From UHGV virus genome UHGV-0196552: DNA of 13,292 nucleotides; one strand, 5' to 3'. Source of the stretch: a virus. Below are positions 1 to 13,292 of this stretch, piece by piece. Both the position numbers and the translations under genes were made by a program. Every line of letters begins with the position of its first letter. Position 1 is the first letter of the stretch. Below the pieces are notes generated by a model, which was given only the letters and a program-made list of their open reading frames with translations, did no database searches and was not told where the DNA came from.

Positions 1-118
1 ATTCAGTATCTGATACAGCAATATGGGATTTTAGATAGTAAGTAAGGGTTTGGTACTTTCACTTTAGAAAGGTACTAACAGTACTTCAGGATGAAGTACT
101 TAGTTTCAAGGATGAAAT

Positions 119-619
119 ATGAAAAAGGAAAAAAGAAATGACCTAAAGGGTCAGGAATTACCACATGTAAAACAAGCACTACGAGTATGGAATAATTTTC
201 ACTCAAGAGTACGTAATAACATCAATTACAGTACTGTTACCATCTGCGATGACTGGTATCGGTTTAGTGATTTTTATTATTGGTATGTCGAAAATATTGT
301 TGATGGTTGGCATTTAGATAAAGATATATTAGGAGGTAATGAGTACGGCCCAAGTAACTGCATCTTTGTACCGAGAGAAGTAAATCAATTGTTCCGTAAA
401 GTACCAACATCATTATCAACCGGTGTTGTCGTTAATCATAAGGGCTATCAAGCACAAGCAACATTTGATAAGAAAGGACATAAGTTTGGGACATACCCAA
501 CGATAGAAGAAGCTCATGCTGCTTATGTTGTTGGGCGTAAATCATATATCTATAAAATATCGCAGCAGTATAAATCATTTCCAAAACTTAGTGCGATACT
601 ATTACAAAAATCAAAATAA
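119..619 (+). CDS. HNH/AP2-type homing-endonuclease-like protein (degenerate HNH_3-like segment plus AP2-like DNA-binding segment)
   Basis: ATG at 119 with AAGGA 6 nt upstream. Segment WHLDKDILGGNEYGPSNCIFVPREVN resembles the HNH_3 pattern (H-x-D...N...N); GVVVNHKGYQAQATFDKKGHKFGTYPTIEEAHAAY resembles the AP2 pattern (GV..k.gkW.Aqi....k...LG.F.t.eEAa.AY). The usual His-His pair is reduced to WH, so activity is uncertain. Confidence 0.5.
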   Translation: MKKEKRNDLKGQELPHVKQALRVWNNFHSRVRNNINYSTVTICDDWYRFSDFYYWYVENIVDGWHLDKDILGGNEYGPSNCIFVPREVNQLFRKVPTSLSTGVVVNHKGYQAQATFDKKGHKFGTYPTIEEAHAAYVVGRKSYIYKISQQYKSFPKLSAILLQKSK

Positions 620-684
620 CGAAATGGCCTGAGTACTGGAAATACTACAGGCCAATATTAACATCTATCATAGGGGTATTTATT

Positions 685-1209
685 ATGACAAAAAAGAAAG
701 AGCCGCATGAAATAAAGAAACGTGGACGAAAACCAAAAAAACACGATAATGCAGAATTACAAGATCATCTAAGGGGAGTACGCCATCTCAATCAACTTAC
801 AGATGAAGCACGTAGAGTAATATCAAACTCTGTTAAAAGTTACTTTGAAAAGAACAAGAAACGTAAGACTTTCTCAAACAAGAATATGCTACTTCTGGTT
901 ACATCGACTCGATACATCACAGATGAAGCGATAAAGAACAATATCGAGTACTTTGCTGCCTTTACACTCAATGAGTACGGCGATTCCTCAGTACGAGATT
1001 ATAAGATGGTCACGATTGCTATATGTGAAGGCCTGAATGCGATTCTAAGTAGTGGTAAGCCGGTAAGAAGTGATACACCAGAGGGAGCACAGTACTTAAC
1101 TGGTGAAGAAGCATATCAACTACGTATGGCTTTAGATGGTGGCTGTACTAAGGCAGATCTACTAAAGGTTATAGCTACAATTTATCCCGAATTAAGACAT
1201 TCTAAGTAG
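685..1209 (+). CDS. hypothetical protein with strongly basic N-terminus (KKRGRKPKK, AT-hook-like); possible DNA-binding protein
   Basis: 174-aa ORF with ATG start, same strand and 65 nt downstream of the previous gene. No family recognised by eye. Confidence 0.45.
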   Translation: MTKKKEPHEIKKRGRKPKKHDNAELQDHLRGVRHLNQLTDEARRVISNSVKSYFEKNKKRKTFSNKNMLLLVTSTRYITDEAIKNNIEYFAAFTLNEYGDSSVRDYKMVTIAICEGLNAILSSGKPVRSDTPEGAQYLTGEEAYQLRMALDGGCTKADLLKVIATIYPELRHSK

Positions 1210-1758
1210 TGTTTTAATAACGGTTCAAATGTCGTAATTAAGGTTAAATTGGGTTTTTATGGGGTTGATTAGTGTTGCTTGCACTAGATATAGTATCTAA
1301 AATGAGTTAAAACACACTATATATGGGGTGTCCCGAATTTCGACACCATAATTAGAAATTATTAAGACCTCTTGTACTACGTCCAAATCGGTCTTTGAGT
1401 GCCTACACTCCCTGCGGTCGTATAGTCACTGAAAAACAAATTAAACCGATCCTTGCGTTTTTTCTCGCTAGTACTCGAAAAGAACTAAGGGATTTACTCG
1501 CTTTCGCTCAGACAAGTAACAGTACTGACTAAACTATTGGGGGTCGGCATATGGCCTAAAGTTCGCTTCGCTCTTTTTGAAGTATCTACGCGGGCTAAGC
1601 CCTTGTTGGGGTTATCGGGCTGTTTAAGCCCTTACTGAAGTCATCAAATCCTCTAACGACACGAAGCAGTACTATCAAGTTACATACATTAAAGTATGGA
1701 ATGTCAATGAGTTGAGTTGTCCTCTAAGTCGAGAGAAGGGCACATGTACATAGAAATA
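1210..1758. other. structured non-coding region between convergent genes; candidate sRNA or regulatory locus
   Basis: No ORF of 60 aa or more on either strand in the track. GC visibly higher than flanks. Hairpin GGTGTC-N9-GACACC at about 1327-1347. Direct repeats CGCTTTCGCTC (about 1499) and CGCTTCGCTC (about 1565). Two near-identical hairpins CGGGCT-A-AGCCCTT (about 1591) and CGGGCT-GTTTA-AGCCCTT (about 1616). Confidence 0.3.
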
Positions 1759-10008: not shown

Positions 10009-10020
10009 TAAGGAAATCAA

Positions 10021-10551
10021 ATGGCACTACTACCAGACAAGATCTATTTGGTATCAAATCCAATGGATCTAACGGTAAAAGTACCCGCTGCTACGATTCT
10101 CGTTATTAGTTTTACTTCATCCGGTCAAAGTACATCATTAGATAATCTCAATGGCAGTACTTCAAAAGATTTTACGGTTACATTAGATATAAGTACAGCA
10201 AGTGAATTACTTTTCTGTACTCAAATATCTAACGGACAAGCCAGTACATTTACTTCTGAGGTCATTAATCCATTACTTTATACTTCTGAATACGCACAAT
10301 TGAAACAGATGATCAGTGAAATTGATACGGTAATTGCTAATAAAATTGCAGGTGGTGCTAATTACTCAATCACAATCAATAATAAAACTCTTGTAAGTGA
10401 ATCACTATCATCACTTGAATCCATGCGTGAACGCTATGTGAAGCGTGCAAACTCACTATTTGTAAAAATGAATGGCGGTACTTTATCCAGTGGCGGCAAA
10501 CCAATCAAGAGTATTACGGTTTTCAAGCCTAAGCCAGGGAGTACACGCTAA
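10021..10551 (+). CDS. gpW-like head-tail joining/head completion protein with an N-terminal extension of about 85 aa
   Basis: Sits between large terminase and portal, as W does in lambda. C-terminal about 90 aa align loosely with the 68-aa lambda gpW. Strong RBS AGGAAA 4 nt before ATG 10021. Stop TAA overlaps the portal ATG (TAATG). Confidence 0.55.
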
Positions 10552-12059
10552 TGTTCTGGAATAAAAAAGAAGTCACACAAGAAGCTAAACCTAAGAAACA
10601 AAAACAAGAGCGTAGTACTAAACCATCAACACTTAAACGTGATATTCAGGCAGTACGCAACACATCGGTTATGAATTTTGGATTTAATGCTAATTCAGGA
10701 AGCAATATCAACTTTCTGATATTTAAAGCACTATCTACCATGCGAGCGTTTTCACGTGATGCAGTACTTAAAAACCCAATTGGGCGAAAGTACATGAACC
10801 TTTCCGTGGATGGTGTAGTAGGTTCTGATGGTGTTTATGTGAAACCAGCGGTAGAGATTGACGGCAGCGAAGATGAAATTAACCAGATTAATGAACAATT
10901 AGAGAAACTATTTGATCGTTGGGCTTATGATCCAGACCGCTTTAGCGTCGATGGTGCTTTAAGTTTCGAGCTATTCCAACAAAATGTAGAGAAGATTAGG
11001 GTACAAGATGGTGAATGCTTTATCAGAATTCATACTATTAACCGTCAAATAAAATTAGAAATCTTAGATACTGCTCGTTTACAGCAATCCAATAACCAAC
11101 ATTTAGCCAATGGTAATTATATCAGTAATGGTATCGAATTTGACCAATGGCACAGACCAGTAAATTACTATTTCTCTAGATTTGATCCCGTTACGTACAC
11201 GTACAGTACTGGAGATTATGAAGTCATTCCGGCTAATGAAATATGCCACTACTTCATAGCAGACCAGCAAGGGCAGGAACGCGGATTACCCGATTTAGTC
11301 GCTACAAGTAAGTTAATTGAAGATCTGAAGAACTTCACAGAGGCTGCATTAACAGCAAAACGTGTAAGTGCTTCCAGTATGGCATTCATTACTAATAATA
11401 ACGACACTACCAGTACAGATCTGTTAGGTGCTGATGAGCGTGATGAAGTTACACCAGTATACACAGAGTACTTTGAAGCGGGCTTTATTGGTGAATTAGG
11501 TGAAGGGCAGGACATTAAAACTGTCACTCCGACGAATGGTGTAGATGGTATCGATCAGTTTACTAATGAACTCATGAATCAAATTAGCATGGGCTTAAAC
11601 GTAACTAAACAGGCTCTATTATCTGACACATCTAATGCTTCATTCAGTGCTGCACGATTAACAGAAAAACTACAACAAACCACTTTCCGTACTCGAACCA
11701 ATGTACTTATCAGTAAAGTACTCAAACCAATCTATATAGCTTGGTTAAAGAATGAAATGATTAATAACAGCAAATTGAATCTCAGTTTCTCAGACTTTGA
11801 TGATCTCATTTGTGCTCGCTACATTCTACAAAAGCCAATTAGTTTAGATCCTGTAAAGGATATACAGGCTGAACTACTTCAATTGGAAGCAGGTATTAAA
11901 TCTAAAACTCAGGTTATCGCCGAACTTGGTGGTGATCCAGTCAAGGTATTAGCAGAGGTACAGGCAGAAAAGGAAAAAGAAAACCCAAACAAGGAAGTTA
12001 ACCAGGATGGAAATCAAAAACCAGAAGAGGGAACTAACGATACCCCTACAGGCGATTAA
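10551..12059 (+). CDS. portal protein (lambda gpB-type)
   Basis: 502-aa ORF in the canonical portal position after terminase and W, translationally coupled on both sides. Size close to lambda gpB (533 aa). Assignment rests mainly on synteny and size. Confidence 0.75.
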
Positions 12060-13292
12060 TACAGAATCGCGAACTATCGATGTAGCGTTTTGCTCAGAAA
12101 CACCAGTAGAGCGTGAAATCAATGGTGAAATCTATAATGAAATCCTTCTATGCGGTTCTGATAACGCAGACCTACGCCGTCTTAATCAAAATGGTGCAGT
12201 ACTCTTTAATCATAATCGTGATGATCTCATTGGTGCTGTTGTATCTGCACATATGGACGCCGACCGTGTAGGACGTGCAACGCTACGTATTAGTACTACC
12301 GCTAATGATGAATGGGAAATGATTCAGGAAGGCGTACTAACACATATCAGTATTGGCTATAACATTAATGATTACTACATTTCTGGAAATAATATCTACG
12401 TTTCCGATTATGAAATCTATGAAATTAGCTTAGTTACAATACCAGCAGATGCTTCTGTAGGCGTAGGCCGTTCAATGGAATCCGATATTGAAATTGATTC
12501 ACTAAATAAAGCAGGTGAAACAATTCAAAAGGATCAATTCATGGAAGAAACAAATAACGATAGCGAAATTGAAACGACAGTAGACGCTACCGAACAGGAA
12601 GTTAAAGACGAAGTTGAAGAAGTAGTAGAACACGTAGATGAAGTTAAACGCGATCTAAGTGATGAAGAACTTTTAGATATTCTTTCTAAACGTCCTGACT
12701 TACTCAACAAAGTACAAGGTGAAGAACCGGAAATTATAAATAGTACTGATGATACTGAACGTGTACGCGAACTAGAAGCACTCGGTAAAGTACTTAATAT
12801 TGATGTATCGGATGCCATTGGTAAAGGAATTACCGTGACCGATTTCAAACGTCAATTGAATGACATTAAAAACAATCCTAATCATGATAAGGAAATCAAA
12901 TCGATGGATAAAAATCTATTAAAGGATATGCTACGTGCTATCAAAGCCGGTGATAAAACCTCTCTTGAAGGTTATGAATTCGGTAAGAATGGTTATGTAC
13001 GTGCTGTAGTACCTTCAACTAATACTACTACGGCTGCTGGTGTAGTCGCAGATGATCTACAAGACCAATATATTCCAGAGCTATTAAAGCTATCTGCTCT
13101 TGGTGAACTAAATACTACTGTTTATTCAGGCTTGGCTGGTCGTGGTAATCTTTCTATTCCTAAAGCTAATGGTGTAACTCCGGTATTTAAATTCTATGGC
13201 GAAGCAGAAGCACAAGATGATTCTATTGCTAACTTCACTAAAGTTACCCTAACACCAAAAGCATTCGGTGGTGCTATTCCACTAAGTAAAAC
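12007..13292 (+). CDS. prohead protease (HK97/S78-type) - scaffold-like acidic linker - HK97-fold major capsid protein, single ORF, 3'-partial
   Basis: Not in the supplied track because it has no stop within the window. ATG 12007 (AAGGAAG 9 nt upstream), frame open to 13292. N-terminal region has S78-like motifs ([23 protein letters not shown]). Middle is acidic and coiled-coil-like. C-terminal part matches HK97-family capsid pattern ([16 protein letters not shown] versus VTLTPKKLAALVPVS, from memory). Confidence 0.8.

Follow-up and report, generated by a model that had tools for sequence, protein, structure and literature searches.

Over-representation of the palindrome AGTACT in a clade of enterobacterial prophages and in unrelated jumbo phages

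The DNA analysed here (the window, 13,292 bp) is 38% GC prophage DNA of Enterobacteriaceae and carries a large excess of the palindromic hexamer AGTACT. This excess resides at the DNA level, is specific to the element and extends throughout its clade, in which sites are both retained and gained again and again. We favour, with moderate confidence, the explanation that AGTACT is a dispersed recognition word maintained by selection on the phage's own DNA, similar to a highly iterated palindrome (HIP) and with a weaker preference for a 5′ C (CAGTACTG). If true, an unrecognised system reads AGTACT on the DNA of two phage lineages that are unrelated but infect the same order of hosts.

Results

AGTACT excess in the window

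Exact counting gave 49 AGTACT sites (3.7 per kb), the number which a preliminary description had obtained by eye and at the positions it had named, and AGTACT is the most frequent hexamer of the window. The sites and associated features are as follows.

AGTACT sites, first part (exact count): 80, 95, 230, 632, 947, 1091, 1470, 1521, 1668, 2387, 2423, 2684, 3382, 3596, 3996, 4079, 4141, 4269, 4395, 4420, 5032, 5195, 5362, 5446, 5481
AGTACT sites, remainder (exact count): 5552, 6706, 7934, 8157, 8308, 8322, 8358, 8487, 8704, 8902, 9235, 9655, 9697, 9904, 10156, 10614, 10763, 11205, 11467, 11717, 12198, 12292, 12742, 12789
Intergenic AGTACT sites: 80, 95, 632, 1470, 1521, 1668, 2684, 4269
1..13292: AGTACT field, 49 dispersed sites spanning the prophage left arm and head genes
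229..236: CAGTACTG octamer in p166, phase 0, Ser-Thr
1520..1527: CAGTACTG octamer, intergenic
1759..2472, minus strand: 2-TM membrane-protein gene, AGTACT only at 2387 and 2423, its 5′ end
4419..4426: CAGTACTG octamer in p103 (minus-strand gene), phase 2
5031..5038: CAGTACTG octamer in p169, phase 0
5194..5201: CAGTACTG octamer in p169, phase 1, Gln-Tyr-Cys
5336..5608, plus strand: 90-aa lipoprotein-like ORF, 4 AGTACT (14.7 per kb), the densest gene
5609..7664, minus strand: motif-poor block of two opposite-strand cargo genes, 1 site versus 7.6 expected
5729..6883, minus strand: DUF3800 gene, in the motif-poor block
7063..7626, minus strand: 187-aa gene with a restriction-endonuclease-like fold, in the motif-poor block
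8119..10008, plus strand: large terminase gene, GpA type, 11 AGTACT, one of them also in the overlapping TerS gene
8486..8493: CAGTACTG octamer in the large terminase gene, phase 2
9654..9661: CAGTACTG octamer in the large terminase gene, phase 0
11204..11211: CAGTACTG octamer in the portal gene, phase 0

Mononucleotide composition predicts 4.4 sites, in agreement with the earlier figure of 4–5, and 200 dinucleotide-preserving shuffles yielded 3.9 ± 2.1 (maximum 12), none of the 200 reaching 49. Markov models of orders 0, 1, 2, 3 and 4 lead to expectations of 4.4, 3.7, 9.4, 22.7 and 45.2, respectively. The preliminary description had named a ratio near 1 under a higher-order Markov or a codon-aware model as evidence against the excess. 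Among the Markov models such a ratio arises only at order 4, orders 0–3 being clearly exceeded, and it is no refutation because order 4 conditions on AGTAC and GTACT, which are themselves enriched half-sites. Codon-aware models predict about 5–10 of the 42 sites located in coding sequences: a synonymous-codon shuffle, holding every protein and the codon usage of each gene constant, gave 10.2 ± 2.9 in 1000 runs (maximum 20), and a codon-order shuffle 4.9 ± 2.2.

The sites are found in codon phases 0, 1 and 2 and in non-coding DNA (19, 7, 15 and 8, respectively). The 8 intergenic sites occupy 1.6 kb, convergent gene ends included, a density equal to or higher than that of the genes. Ser-Thr dipeptides are in excess (36 versus 16.8 expected) and AGT-ACT encodes 19 of the 36, where codon use predicts about 7%; AG-TAC-T occurs 7 times and AG-TAT-T never, despite TAT being the commoner Tyr codon. 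The presence of sites in all phases and between genes, together with the codon-aware models, thus supports the original view of a DNA-level signal rather than a dipeptide bias. The eight octamers noted at the outset are all present as CAGTACTG, of which 0.18 are expected.

Motif-poor cargo genes

The density of sites varies with gene class. Genes of the 90-aa lipoprotein-like family average 8 AGTACT per kb in the clade, and those of the 2-TM family 0.95 per kb with GTAC at background. The shortage of sites described earlier for 5609–7664 (Poisson P = 0.004) and for most of the 2-TM gene is real, and opposite-strand cargo genes are poor in AGTACT throughout the clade. GCGC is absent from the window, motif-poor block included, and the cargo genes are GCGC-free, yet their AGTACT and GTAC remain at background. 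The proposal that the motif-poor segments were recently acquired is only partly right: since the 187-aa nuclease-like gene diverges alongside TerL, to the same degree as the portal and capsid genes, recent arrival alone is insufficient. The exemption of these genes argues against a uniform mutational drive. Opposite-strand genes are probably expressed from the prophage, and their exemption suggests that the lytic part of the genome is where the sites exert their effect, or the only part that tolerates them.

Host DNA, clade and site turnover

AGTACT enrichment ends at the borders of the element: flanking E. coli DNA contains 4 sites in 54 kb versus 13.4 expected (about 0.3 times expectation), which settles the question of whether the motif is host-wide in favour of the element. 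The whole prophage clade (TerL 62–100% identical) is rich in AGTACT, our sample of 69 GCGC-free clade loci (1.09 Mb) including 2946 sites versus 363 expected (8.1-fold). It is the sole strongly enriched hexamer palindrome there, while about 26 of the 64 are at least 4-fold depleted.

The large terminase gene was our marker, both for the clade and for following how sites are gained, lost and retained. At 15–25% nucleotide divergence and with amino acids conserved, AGTACT retention is 65% versus 28% for the synonymous background; the survival of sites is therefore about double that of comparable synonymous hexamers. Across 51 terminase genes the sites occupy 28 columns in a patchy distribution, and parsimony on the terminase tree gives 79 gains and 39 losses, the gains including amino-acid changes (NP, DT and RT to ST). 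This homoplasy may be due in part to recombination, and sequence alone does not distinguish selection from biased gene conversion.

Jumbo phages and other coliphages

The Rak2-like jumbo phages 121Q, RaK2, GAP32 and BF, which are unrelated to the clade, carry the same signature: AGTACT over-represented with C as the preferred flank, GCGC absent (zero copies in all four) and many other palindromes purged. No shared proteins were found between the clade and the sampled jumbo-phage DNA. An unselected 100 kb of 121Q includes 207 AGTACT in all phases versus 33.5 expected; the synonymous-shuffle expectation is about 25 versus 73 and 93 observed, and C is favoured over G in the flanks as in the clade. 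RaK2, GAP32 and BF show a 6–9-fold excess, and the range over clade and jumbo phages is 5–20-fold. In contrast, T5 (1 versus 4.9 expected), FelixO1 (1 versus 4.8) and RB49 (0 versus 12.9) avoid AGTACT although they infect the same hosts and have also purged many palindromes; an equal richness of unrelated genomes of similar composition, which would have counted against the signal, is thus not seen in these phages. 121Q encodes a C5 cytosine methyltransferase, Rak2-like phages encode methyltransferases as well, and RaK2 DNA is reported to be methylated, at CpG (PMC3622015).

Discussion

Properties of the word and its putative reader

The flank preference of AGTACT is 1.74-fold for C and 0.58-fold for G (G at −1). 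In the clade CAGTACTG is over-represented 31-fold versus 3.6-fold for GAGTACTC; positions beyond ±1 contribute about 0 bits of information. One-off variants are enriched 2.9-fold when the change is at an outer position and 1.1-fold when it is at an inner one. Distances between sites in the clade follow a Poisson-like pattern (CV 1.06), and this random spacing implies that density counts rather than arrays. Uninformative flanks and such spacing also indicate that AGTACT is not embedded in a longer repeat or mobile element.

A dimeric enzyme or binder with sequence-specific, Type II-like recognition of DNA would have such a footprint: a perfect palindrome of 6 bp whose outer positions show graded tolerance. 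Given the ratios to expectation in host (about 0.3) and phage (5–20), such a reader would occupy or modify phage DNA tens of times more densely than that of the host and would thereby mark it as self, like Chi or uptake sequences for host DNA. The phages could encode the reader themselves, with non-homologous proteins in the two lineages, or it could be a factor that hosts across Enterobacterales have in common; no reader was found among the candidates examined, which included SlmA, LexA, TrpR and the methyltransferase-like gene of the clade.

Comparison with known systems

The closest resemblance is to HIP1 (GCGATCGC) and other highly iterated palindromes of cyanobacteria (Elhai 2015, PMC4390886). 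The likeness to these rather than to a restriction site, proposed in the preliminary description, agrees with the 5–20-fold enrichment in all frames and between genes. Both are short perfect palindromes in many-fold excess which spread by point substitution with turnover, not by transposition; in both, one-off variants differ chiefly at the outermost positions, the inner core being unenriched outside the full context, and orphan methyltransferase genes occur in the same genomes. However, HIP1 belongs to the host chromosome, whereas AGTACT is a phage word that is rarer than expected in the host, so that the chromosome-wide distribution typical of HIPs is lacking. The AGTACT word is 6–8 bp (8 for HIP1), has no known methyltransferase of matching specificity, coexists with an extreme purge of GCGC and other palindromes and varies in density by gene class within one genome.

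Chi (GCTGGTGG), USS/DUS and KOPS are likewise dispersed, randomly spaced and strongly over-represented short words, maintained at synonymous sites, whose effect is set by density and by the contrast between self and foreign DNA. They differ in being asymmetric, orientation-dependent and chromosomal rather than palindromic and phage-borne, and in having known readers (RecBCD, the competence receptor and FtsK). Canonical Chi is itself enriched and oriented in the prophage clade, separately from AGTACT. The analogy to an uptake sequence is unsupported because sampled host DNA is poor in AGTACT and there is no tie to competence; the carriers are phages, strictly lytic jumbo phages included, and we rejected a DNA uptake sequence.

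AGTACT is also the 6-bp word of ScaI and Eco255I, and the same genomes avoid dozens of other Type II sites. At high density these sites are a liability unless protected. An avoided restriction site was rejected, since AGTACT is enriched here, with about 26 other hexamer palindromes and GCGC depleted; RB49, T5 and FelixO1 deplete it as expected.

Alternative explanations

An unlikely alternative is the methyltransferase-linked ratchet proposed by Elhai for HIP1, here an orphan methyltransferase for GTAC/AGTACT with strand-biased repair fixing palindrome-completing mutations, whereby AGTACT accumulates without a function of its own. The search suggested initially for a methyltransferase did uncover a clade-conserved gene, the second-to-last of the prophage and outside the window. 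Its product, with motif I and NPPF, has the fold of an N6-amino-methyltransferase, matches rRNA and DNA m6A methyltransferases equally and includes no target-recognition domain. Together with the methyltransferases of Rak2-like phages and the reported methylation of RaK2 DNA (PMC3622015), this would suit a ratchet, and the gene is a weak candidate for the AGTACT reader. However, of the 31 related loci found with it, 8 have a copy that is truncated or matches only in part, and motif density is still high at all six of these with separately counted flanking DNA; RB49, sampled over 40.7 kb without a single AGTACT, encodes a homologue of 54% identity, and no member of the family was detected in the listed jumbo-phage records, all of which speaks against a link to AGTACT. 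Moreover, a genome-wide ratchet would not spare the long-resident cargo genes, the transition neighbours AGTATT and AATACT are undepleted (1.1–1.2-fold) and the strand signal of enterobacterial mismatch repair is GATC, not AGTACT. A VSP-type (Vsr-like) repair drive was also rejected: AGTATT/AATACT stand at 1.1–1.24-fold, with deamination neighbours not depleted.

It is similarly doubtful that phages exploit a host protein common to Enterobacterales which binds AGTACT, such as SlmA, LexA, TrpR or RcnR, even though two unrelated lineages of the same host order have the same word and flank with no shared gene found, and the host chromosome is poor in the word. SlmA, a nucleoid-occlusion factor, has a 12-bp palindromic consensus, GTGAGTACTCAC, with AGTACT as its core and GT..AG/CT..AC arms. 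Its flanking GTG/CAC is unenriched, the G/C flanks that it requires are disfavoured (GAGTACTC versus CAGTACTG, above) and GT.AGTACT.AC occurs at 4 of 2946 sites; a SlmA site was therefore rejected. The half-sites are TACTG/CAGTA for LexA, GNACT for TrpR and TACT...AGTA for RcnR. LexA and TrpR operators were rejected since neither half-sites nor whole motifs show a preferred spacing (4 cases with a gap of 18 bp, no peak for GTACT-N8-AGTAC); among half-site arrangements only the overlapping palindromic one is enriched. T5, FelixO1 and RB49 share the hosts yet avoid the word, and we know of no enterobacterial protein with a bare CAGTACTG site.

A signal read as AGUACU on lytic transcripts by an RNA-binding protein, ribonuclease or small RNA is very improbable. 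Because AGTACT is palindromic, AGUACU would be present in mRNA from either strand, and no excess is seen in those genes that are probably expressed in the lysogen. Nevertheless, the window yielded no Rfam family or structured RNA, we know of no reader of AGUACU, intergenic density is no lower even at convergent gene ends, and perfect 6-bp palindromes whose flanks are symmetrically preferred typify dimeric recognition of DNA.

Finally, a by-product of composition, codon usage or restriction-site purging is largely refuted and has very little likelihood left, whether by decay of C5-methylated GCGC to GTAC through two transitions or by a purge of other palindromes which funnels sequence into one 'safe' palindrome. 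GCGC is missing wherever AGTACT is enriched, GTAC is its double-transition product and both the 121Q C5 enzyme and the reported CpG methylation of RaK2 (PMC3622015) fit such a decay, but the shuffles that preserve proteins and codon usage fall far short in the window (10 versus 42) and in 121Q, the intermediates GTGC/GCAC and AGTGCT/AGCACT are at 1.1- and 1.5-fold, AGCGCT is under-represented in host DNA and the GCGC sites to be expected (about 1400 per Mb) are far fewer than the surplus of GTAC (about 6000). In addition, T5, FelixO1 and RB49 avoid AGTACT despite their own purges, the GCGC-free cargo genes have not gained GTAC and present-day AGTACT gains come from non-GCGC neighbours.

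AGTACT exceeds compositional and codon-aware expectations

Exact counting gave 49 AGTACT in the 13,292-bp window against a mononucleotide expectation of 4.4, and 200 dinucleotide-preserving shuffles yielded 3.9 ± 2.1 (maximum 12). AGTACT is the commonest hexamer of the window, with A-rich words ranking behind it. The roughly ten-fold excess claimed in the preliminary description is thus borne out, and it extends further than could be seen there. Sites occur in all codon phases (19, 7 and 15 in phases 0, 1 and 2) and in non-coding DNA (8 in 1.6 kb), again as had been described. 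The C-flanked octamer CAGTACTG is present 8 times against 0.18 expected.

Markov expectations for orders 0 to 4 were 4.4, 3.7, 9.4, 22.7 and 45.2. The order-4 model reproduces the count because the AGTAC and GTACT counts, themselves the signal, are its input. Two codon-aware nulls were compared with the 42 sites observed in coding sequences. Permutation of synonymous codons within each gene, which preserves the protein and the gene's own codon usage, gave 10.2 ± 2.9 (maximum 20 in 1000 permutations) and shuffling of codon order gave 4.9 ± 2.2. A ratio near one under codon-aware or higher-order nulls, which the preliminary description held would tell against the signal, is in substance not what was found, and a dipeptide or codon-usage artefact is excluded since both shuffles fall far below the observed number. 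The bias operates on two levels, the choice of dipeptide and its codon spelling: Ser-Thr dipeptides are twice as frequent as expected (36 versus 16.8) and 19 of these 36 are spelled AGT-ACT, where codon use predicts about 7%. Similarly, there are 7 AG-TAC-T but no AG-TAT-T, even though Tyr is more often encoded by TAT.

The prophage and its hosts

A terminase identical to that of the window is encoded by the 5.95-Mb chromosome CP100482.1 and by contig CABGQI010000016, and close relatives are present in Cedecea, Citrobacter, Pluralibacter, Pseudescherichia and Enterobacter. No close cultured phage was found in the phage collection, where the top terminase identity was 35%. The prophage begins with a large serine recombinase followed by small genes, an HNH and DUF6998 gene pair, a DUF3800 gene and a nuclease-like gene; then come the small and large terminase (GpA type), the portal, a protease-capsid fusion and tail genes. 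Features of the window referred to below are:

119-619, plus strand: gene for a 166-aa protein similar to the DNA-binding part (HNH_3 and AP2-like) of phage homing endonucleases
1210-1758: 549 bp without ORF between convergent genes
1759-2472, opposite to the structural-gene strand: 2-TM gene
2705-3433, plus strand: HNH-endonuclease gene
3434-4225, plus strand: DUF6998 gene, adjacent to the preceding
4326-4637, minus strand, and 4816-5325, plus strand: divergent pair of small conserved genes
5729-6883, opposite to the structural-gene strand: DUF3800 gene
7063-7626, opposite to the structural-gene strand: gene for a 187-aa nuclease-like protein
7665-8213: small terminase gene
8119-10008: large terminase gene

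No repressor/Cro pair or replication genes were recognisable in the examined parts of the ~33-38 kb prophages of the family (L001 and L003, two whole-prophage loci); the divergent gene pair, which has a raised GC content (0.445), could represent the switch region. The 166-aa protein matches PHROG 953 (E = 6e-37) and has a 35% identical homologue, annotated as an HNH endonuclease, in phage GAP32. Rfam and tRNA scans of the window gave no matches, including in the ORF-free segment, which carries three AGTACT. As delimited, the two terminase ORFs overlap by 95 bases in different frames, and the AGTACT at 8157 within this overlap encodes Ser-Thr in one and Lys-Val-Leu in the other.

AGTACT distinguishes the element from the host chromosome

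E. coli AREA_C483 carries a 97% identical, IS-riddled prophage remnant between yeaG and mipA. The remnant (22350-34860 of that locus), in which the large terminase is split, is broken by IS3-family elements, IS5, ISSen4 and a group II intron. The GC content of the element is 36-40%, that of the sampled E. coli flanking DNA 47-53%. At this locus AGTACT begins and ends with the element: the flanks contain 0 versus 3.7 and 1 versus 2.8 expected, and E. coli flanks totalling 54 kb contain 4 versus 13.4. A host-wide motif is therefore excluded, the E. coli flanking DNA being poor in AGTACT. The density in phage DNA is 20-60 times that in host DNA. The gap in GCGC likewise locates the borders of the E. 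coli prophage with an accuracy of a few hundred bases, and the combination of high AGTACT and zero GCGC, which marks out these prophages with the same precision, could act as a compositional marker for such elements.

An island at ffs in E. coli SBF45 also has 33 AGTACT in 11.5 kb and zero GCGC. Because it has HNH, DUF6998, DUF2188 and a helicase family in common with the prophages, we read it as a probable relative or remnant of them and not as independent evidence.

The excess across the prophage clade

The clade was sampled through 63 IMG/VR loci with terminases 62-100% identical to that of the window, and through 31 loci anchored on a gene at the opposite prophage end. AGTACT is the top hexamer of almost all of these, at 2-4.4 per kb, with a few more distant loci at 0.8-1.5 per kb. 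Pooled GCGC-free clade DNA (1.09 Mb) contains 2946 copies against 363 expected (8.1-fold), and no other hexamer palindrome is strongly enriched. About 26 of the 64 hexamer palindromes are depleted at least four-fold, including the SacI, PstI, SalI, SmaI, KpnI, BamHI, NcoI and XhoI sites. GCGC occurs 10 times in 0.97 Mb, counted before filtering, against about 1240 expected, and is missing from the window (15 expected). Also purged are CCGCGG, GCCGGC, GGWCC, the GTAC palindromes CGTACG and GGTACC, both strongly avoided in the pooled DNA, and about 20 more.

Individual sites turn over. When 51 distinct terminase genes are aligned by codon, AGTACT occupies 28 columns, each in only part of the sequences, and parsimony indicates 79 gains and 39 losses, both of which recombination may inflate. 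Some gains arose by amino-acid replacement (Asn-Pro, Asp-Thr or Arg-Thr to Ser-Thr). At each level of divergence AGTACT is kept better than other hexamers. At 15-25% nucleotide divergence, 65% of AGTACT are unchanged compared with 28% of comparable degenerate codon pairs (phase 0, both amino acids conserved). The excess characterises the clade and is subject to ongoing selection or drive.

Anatomy of the word

Relative to background, the 5' neighbour of AGTACT is C 1.74 times and G 0.58 times as often, and positions further out carry nearly no information. Accordingly, CAGTACTG is enriched 31-fold and its G-flanked counterpart GAGTACTC only 3.6-fold. One-off variants are enriched 2.9-fold when the change is at the outer positions, weakly (1.4-fold) at positions 2 and 5, and not at the centre (1.1-fold); GTAC with neither a preceding A nor a following T is at expectation in the window. 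Distances between sites are random (exponential, CV 1.06), with depletion limited to very short gaps. The profile fits a symmetric 6-bp recognition site that is less strict at its outer contacts and dispersed at a density set by selection; it does not fit operators, arrays or mobile repeats. A longer repeat or MITE is excluded by the uninformative flanks, and arrays or phased spacing by the exponential distances.

Gene families exempt from enrichment

When ORFs of 91 loci were clustered into families, most had 2-5.5 AGTACT and 9-14 GTAC per kb. Background values, 0.2-1 per kb for AGTACT and about 3 per kb for GTAC, were found for a set of families opposite to the structural-gene strand: the 187-aa, 2-TM and DUF3800 genes and several more, to which the plus-strand HNH gene is added. 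In the preliminary description, motif-poor segments were attributed to recent acquisition from a different background. This accounts better for the near-identical DUF3800 gene than for the 187-aa gene, which is a long-term resident of the element: its divergence follows that of the terminase (Spearman 0.52) no less closely than the divergence of the portal (0.34) or capsid (0.29) does. A uniform mutational process should have enriched the 187-aa gene too, and it is at background. Alternatively, a putative exemption of prophage-expressed genes would explain the motif-poor families.

The 187-aa family would be expected to contain about 9 GCGC by our own estimate, the loci analysed having been chosen for zero GCGC. 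It has an invariant D...E-x-K motif, and its model (pLDDT 89) is closest to CinB, SwaI, OkrAI, BstYI, BglII and BamHI, which supports a predicted restriction-endonuclease-like fold.

The same signature in jumbo phages

IMG/VR was scanned for three AGTACT at short distances. Among the matches listed were clade members, as well as parts of two genomes, each of 350 kb and identical to Escherichia phage 121Q and Serratia phage BF, respectively. The first 100 kb of 121Q, which were unselected, contain 207 AGTACT versus 33.5 expected, 43 CAGTACTG versus 0.9, and no GCGC versus 76, and 27 hexamer palindromes are absent. Extrapolated from this density of 2 per kb, complete 121Q would carry about 700 AGTACT. 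As in the clade, C is favoured over G at the flank and sites lie in all three phases; synonymous shuffles gave 24.6 ± 4.6 against 73 observed and 26.0 ± 4.6 against 93. GCGC is also lacking from 15-kb samples of RaK2 (35 AGTACT versus 4.9) and GAP32 (32 versus 5.0) and from a 13.8-kb piece of BF (40 versus 4.6), the latter taken from the cluster scan and not blindly chosen. Other AGTACT-dense metagenomic contigs among the matches listed (L138, L185) match only repeat-like segments of unrelated phages.

The association of raised AGTACT with loss of GCGC is thus a syndrome common to two unrelated Enterobacterales phage lineages. It is no general property of AT-rich coliphages, because T5 (1 versus 4.9), FelixO1 (1 versus 4.8) and RB49 (0 versus 12.9) avoid AGTACT and keep GCGC. 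In 40.7 kb of RB49 (54465-95178), AGTACT, AAGCTT, GAATTC, GGATCC, GGTACC and GTCGAC are all absent, with about 6-13 of each expected. These absences, AGTACT included, represent classical restriction-site avoidance.

Between the clade and ~190 kb of sampled jumbo-phage DNA, no common proteins were found beyond an HNH-AP2 endonuclease and a lysozyme, both matching GAP32, and the small conserved clade proteins have no homologue among cultured phages. Since 121Q, RaK2, GAP32 and BF are cultured, the question of AGTACT is directly testable.

Candidate readers

The product of the second-to-last prophage gene is 236 aa long, contains a SAM-binding motif I and NPPF, and matches phrog_3820 ("DNA methyltransferase"). 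Its model resembles lmo1582, METTL5, Type I HsdM, MmeI and TaqI and has no separate target-recognition domain; the protein thus resembles N6-amino-methyltransferases of DNA or rRNA. The gene is common in Citrobacter, Enterobacter and relatives, and the family is present in T4-like phages. Two findings speak against it as a reader common to both lineages: RB49 has a 54% identical homologue and no sites in its 40.7-kb sample, and the family was not detected among jumbo-phage records. In other phages, distant homologues occur without the motif. Of the 31 loci found with the gene, 8 have a truncated or partly matching copy; flanking DNA was counted separately for six of these, and AGTACT density is still high at all six.

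Among PADLOC models, those for "Type II methyl-directed restriction enzyme" match the window's DUF6998 protein (E = 1e-62), and Type IV models give weak matches to the neighbouring HNH protein. Because a pair with 84% DNA identity sits in the ffs island of several E. coli genomes, the two genes are a candidate mobile defence module. They are accessory (10-14 loci), whereas the signature is clade-wide, which excludes them as its cause. The 187-aa gene is also rejected as the reader, being found in only 27 loci and having no match in the sampled jumbo-phage DNA.

121Q encodes a C5 cytosine methyltransferase. For RaK2, two methyltransferases, CpG methylation and resistance to methylation-sensitive enzymes have been described, with no mention of AGTACT (PMC3622015).

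Possible origins and function

A mutational origin by deamination of methylated GCGC to GTAC would tie together both halves of the syndrome. However, the intermediates stand at 1.1-1.5-fold, AGCGCT is infrequent in host DNA, there is several-fold too little GCGC to start from, and the cargo genes lack GCGC without having gained GTAC. A Vsr-like (VSP) drive predicts depletion of AGTATT/AATACT, which is not seen. SlmA has a consensus with an AGTACT core, but the flanks it needs are disfavoured here and full-length matches are not enriched. LexA and TrpR half-sites resemble parts of the word, yet no spacing peak exists.

The excess is real and far beyond chance. It acts at the level of DNA, is specific to the element, conserved, recurrently gained and common to separate lineages. 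Short palindromes are expected to be lost from phages because they are restriction targets, yet these genomes shed dozens of palindromic sites and pile up one until it is their commonest hexamer. Such accumulation implies a benefit exceeding the cost of exposure to ScaI-type enzymes, and a dense, synonymously conserved word in unrelated phages implies a molecular reader. The best explanation, to which we give about even chances, is a recognition word maintained by selection, far denser on phage than on host DNA, for a sequence-specific reader. This may be a dimeric Type II-like protein, and the word may serve self-marking of phage DNA.

A more speculative and rather doubtful reading makes AGTACT a phage "self barcode", by whose density a dedicated reader would tell phage DNA from host DNA. 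Such a reader could modify the DNA, protect it by binding or guide a nuclease; either the phages would encode it, in forms that are not homologous, or their Enterobacterales hosts would provide it. The system would have evolved or spread convergently in the temperate siphovirus-like clade and the Rak2-like jumbo phages together with GCGC elimination. If true, it would amount to a phage counterpart of Chi or uptake sequences and would add a new level of self/non-self discrimination to the conflict between phage and host.

Chi and uptake sequences are chromosomal and asymmetric, whereas AGTACT is palindromic and phage-borne. The closest known phenomenon is the highly iterated palindromes of cyanobacteria, which have in common frame-independence, substitutional spread and the outer-position pattern of near-misses (PMC4390886). 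In contrast to these, AGTACT is phage-borne, anticorrelated with the host and present in genomes otherwise purging palindromes. Literature searches for AGTACT enrichment, methylome motifs and ScaI-site abundance in these phages returned nothing relevant and no prior description.

Additional observations

The commonest in-gene spelling of the motif is the AGT-ACT codon pair. 121Q carries a tRNA-Ser (25464-25555 of locus L225) with annotated anticodon ACT, which would read AGT, and also a tRNA-Thr. Canonical Chi, GCTGGTGG, is found in the pooled clade DNA (1.09 Mb) 51 times along the terminase strand and a single time on the opposite one, with about 5 expected per strand; one copy lies within the terminase gene of the window (9751-9758, plus strand). 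This is an oriented enrichment, separate from that of AGTACT.
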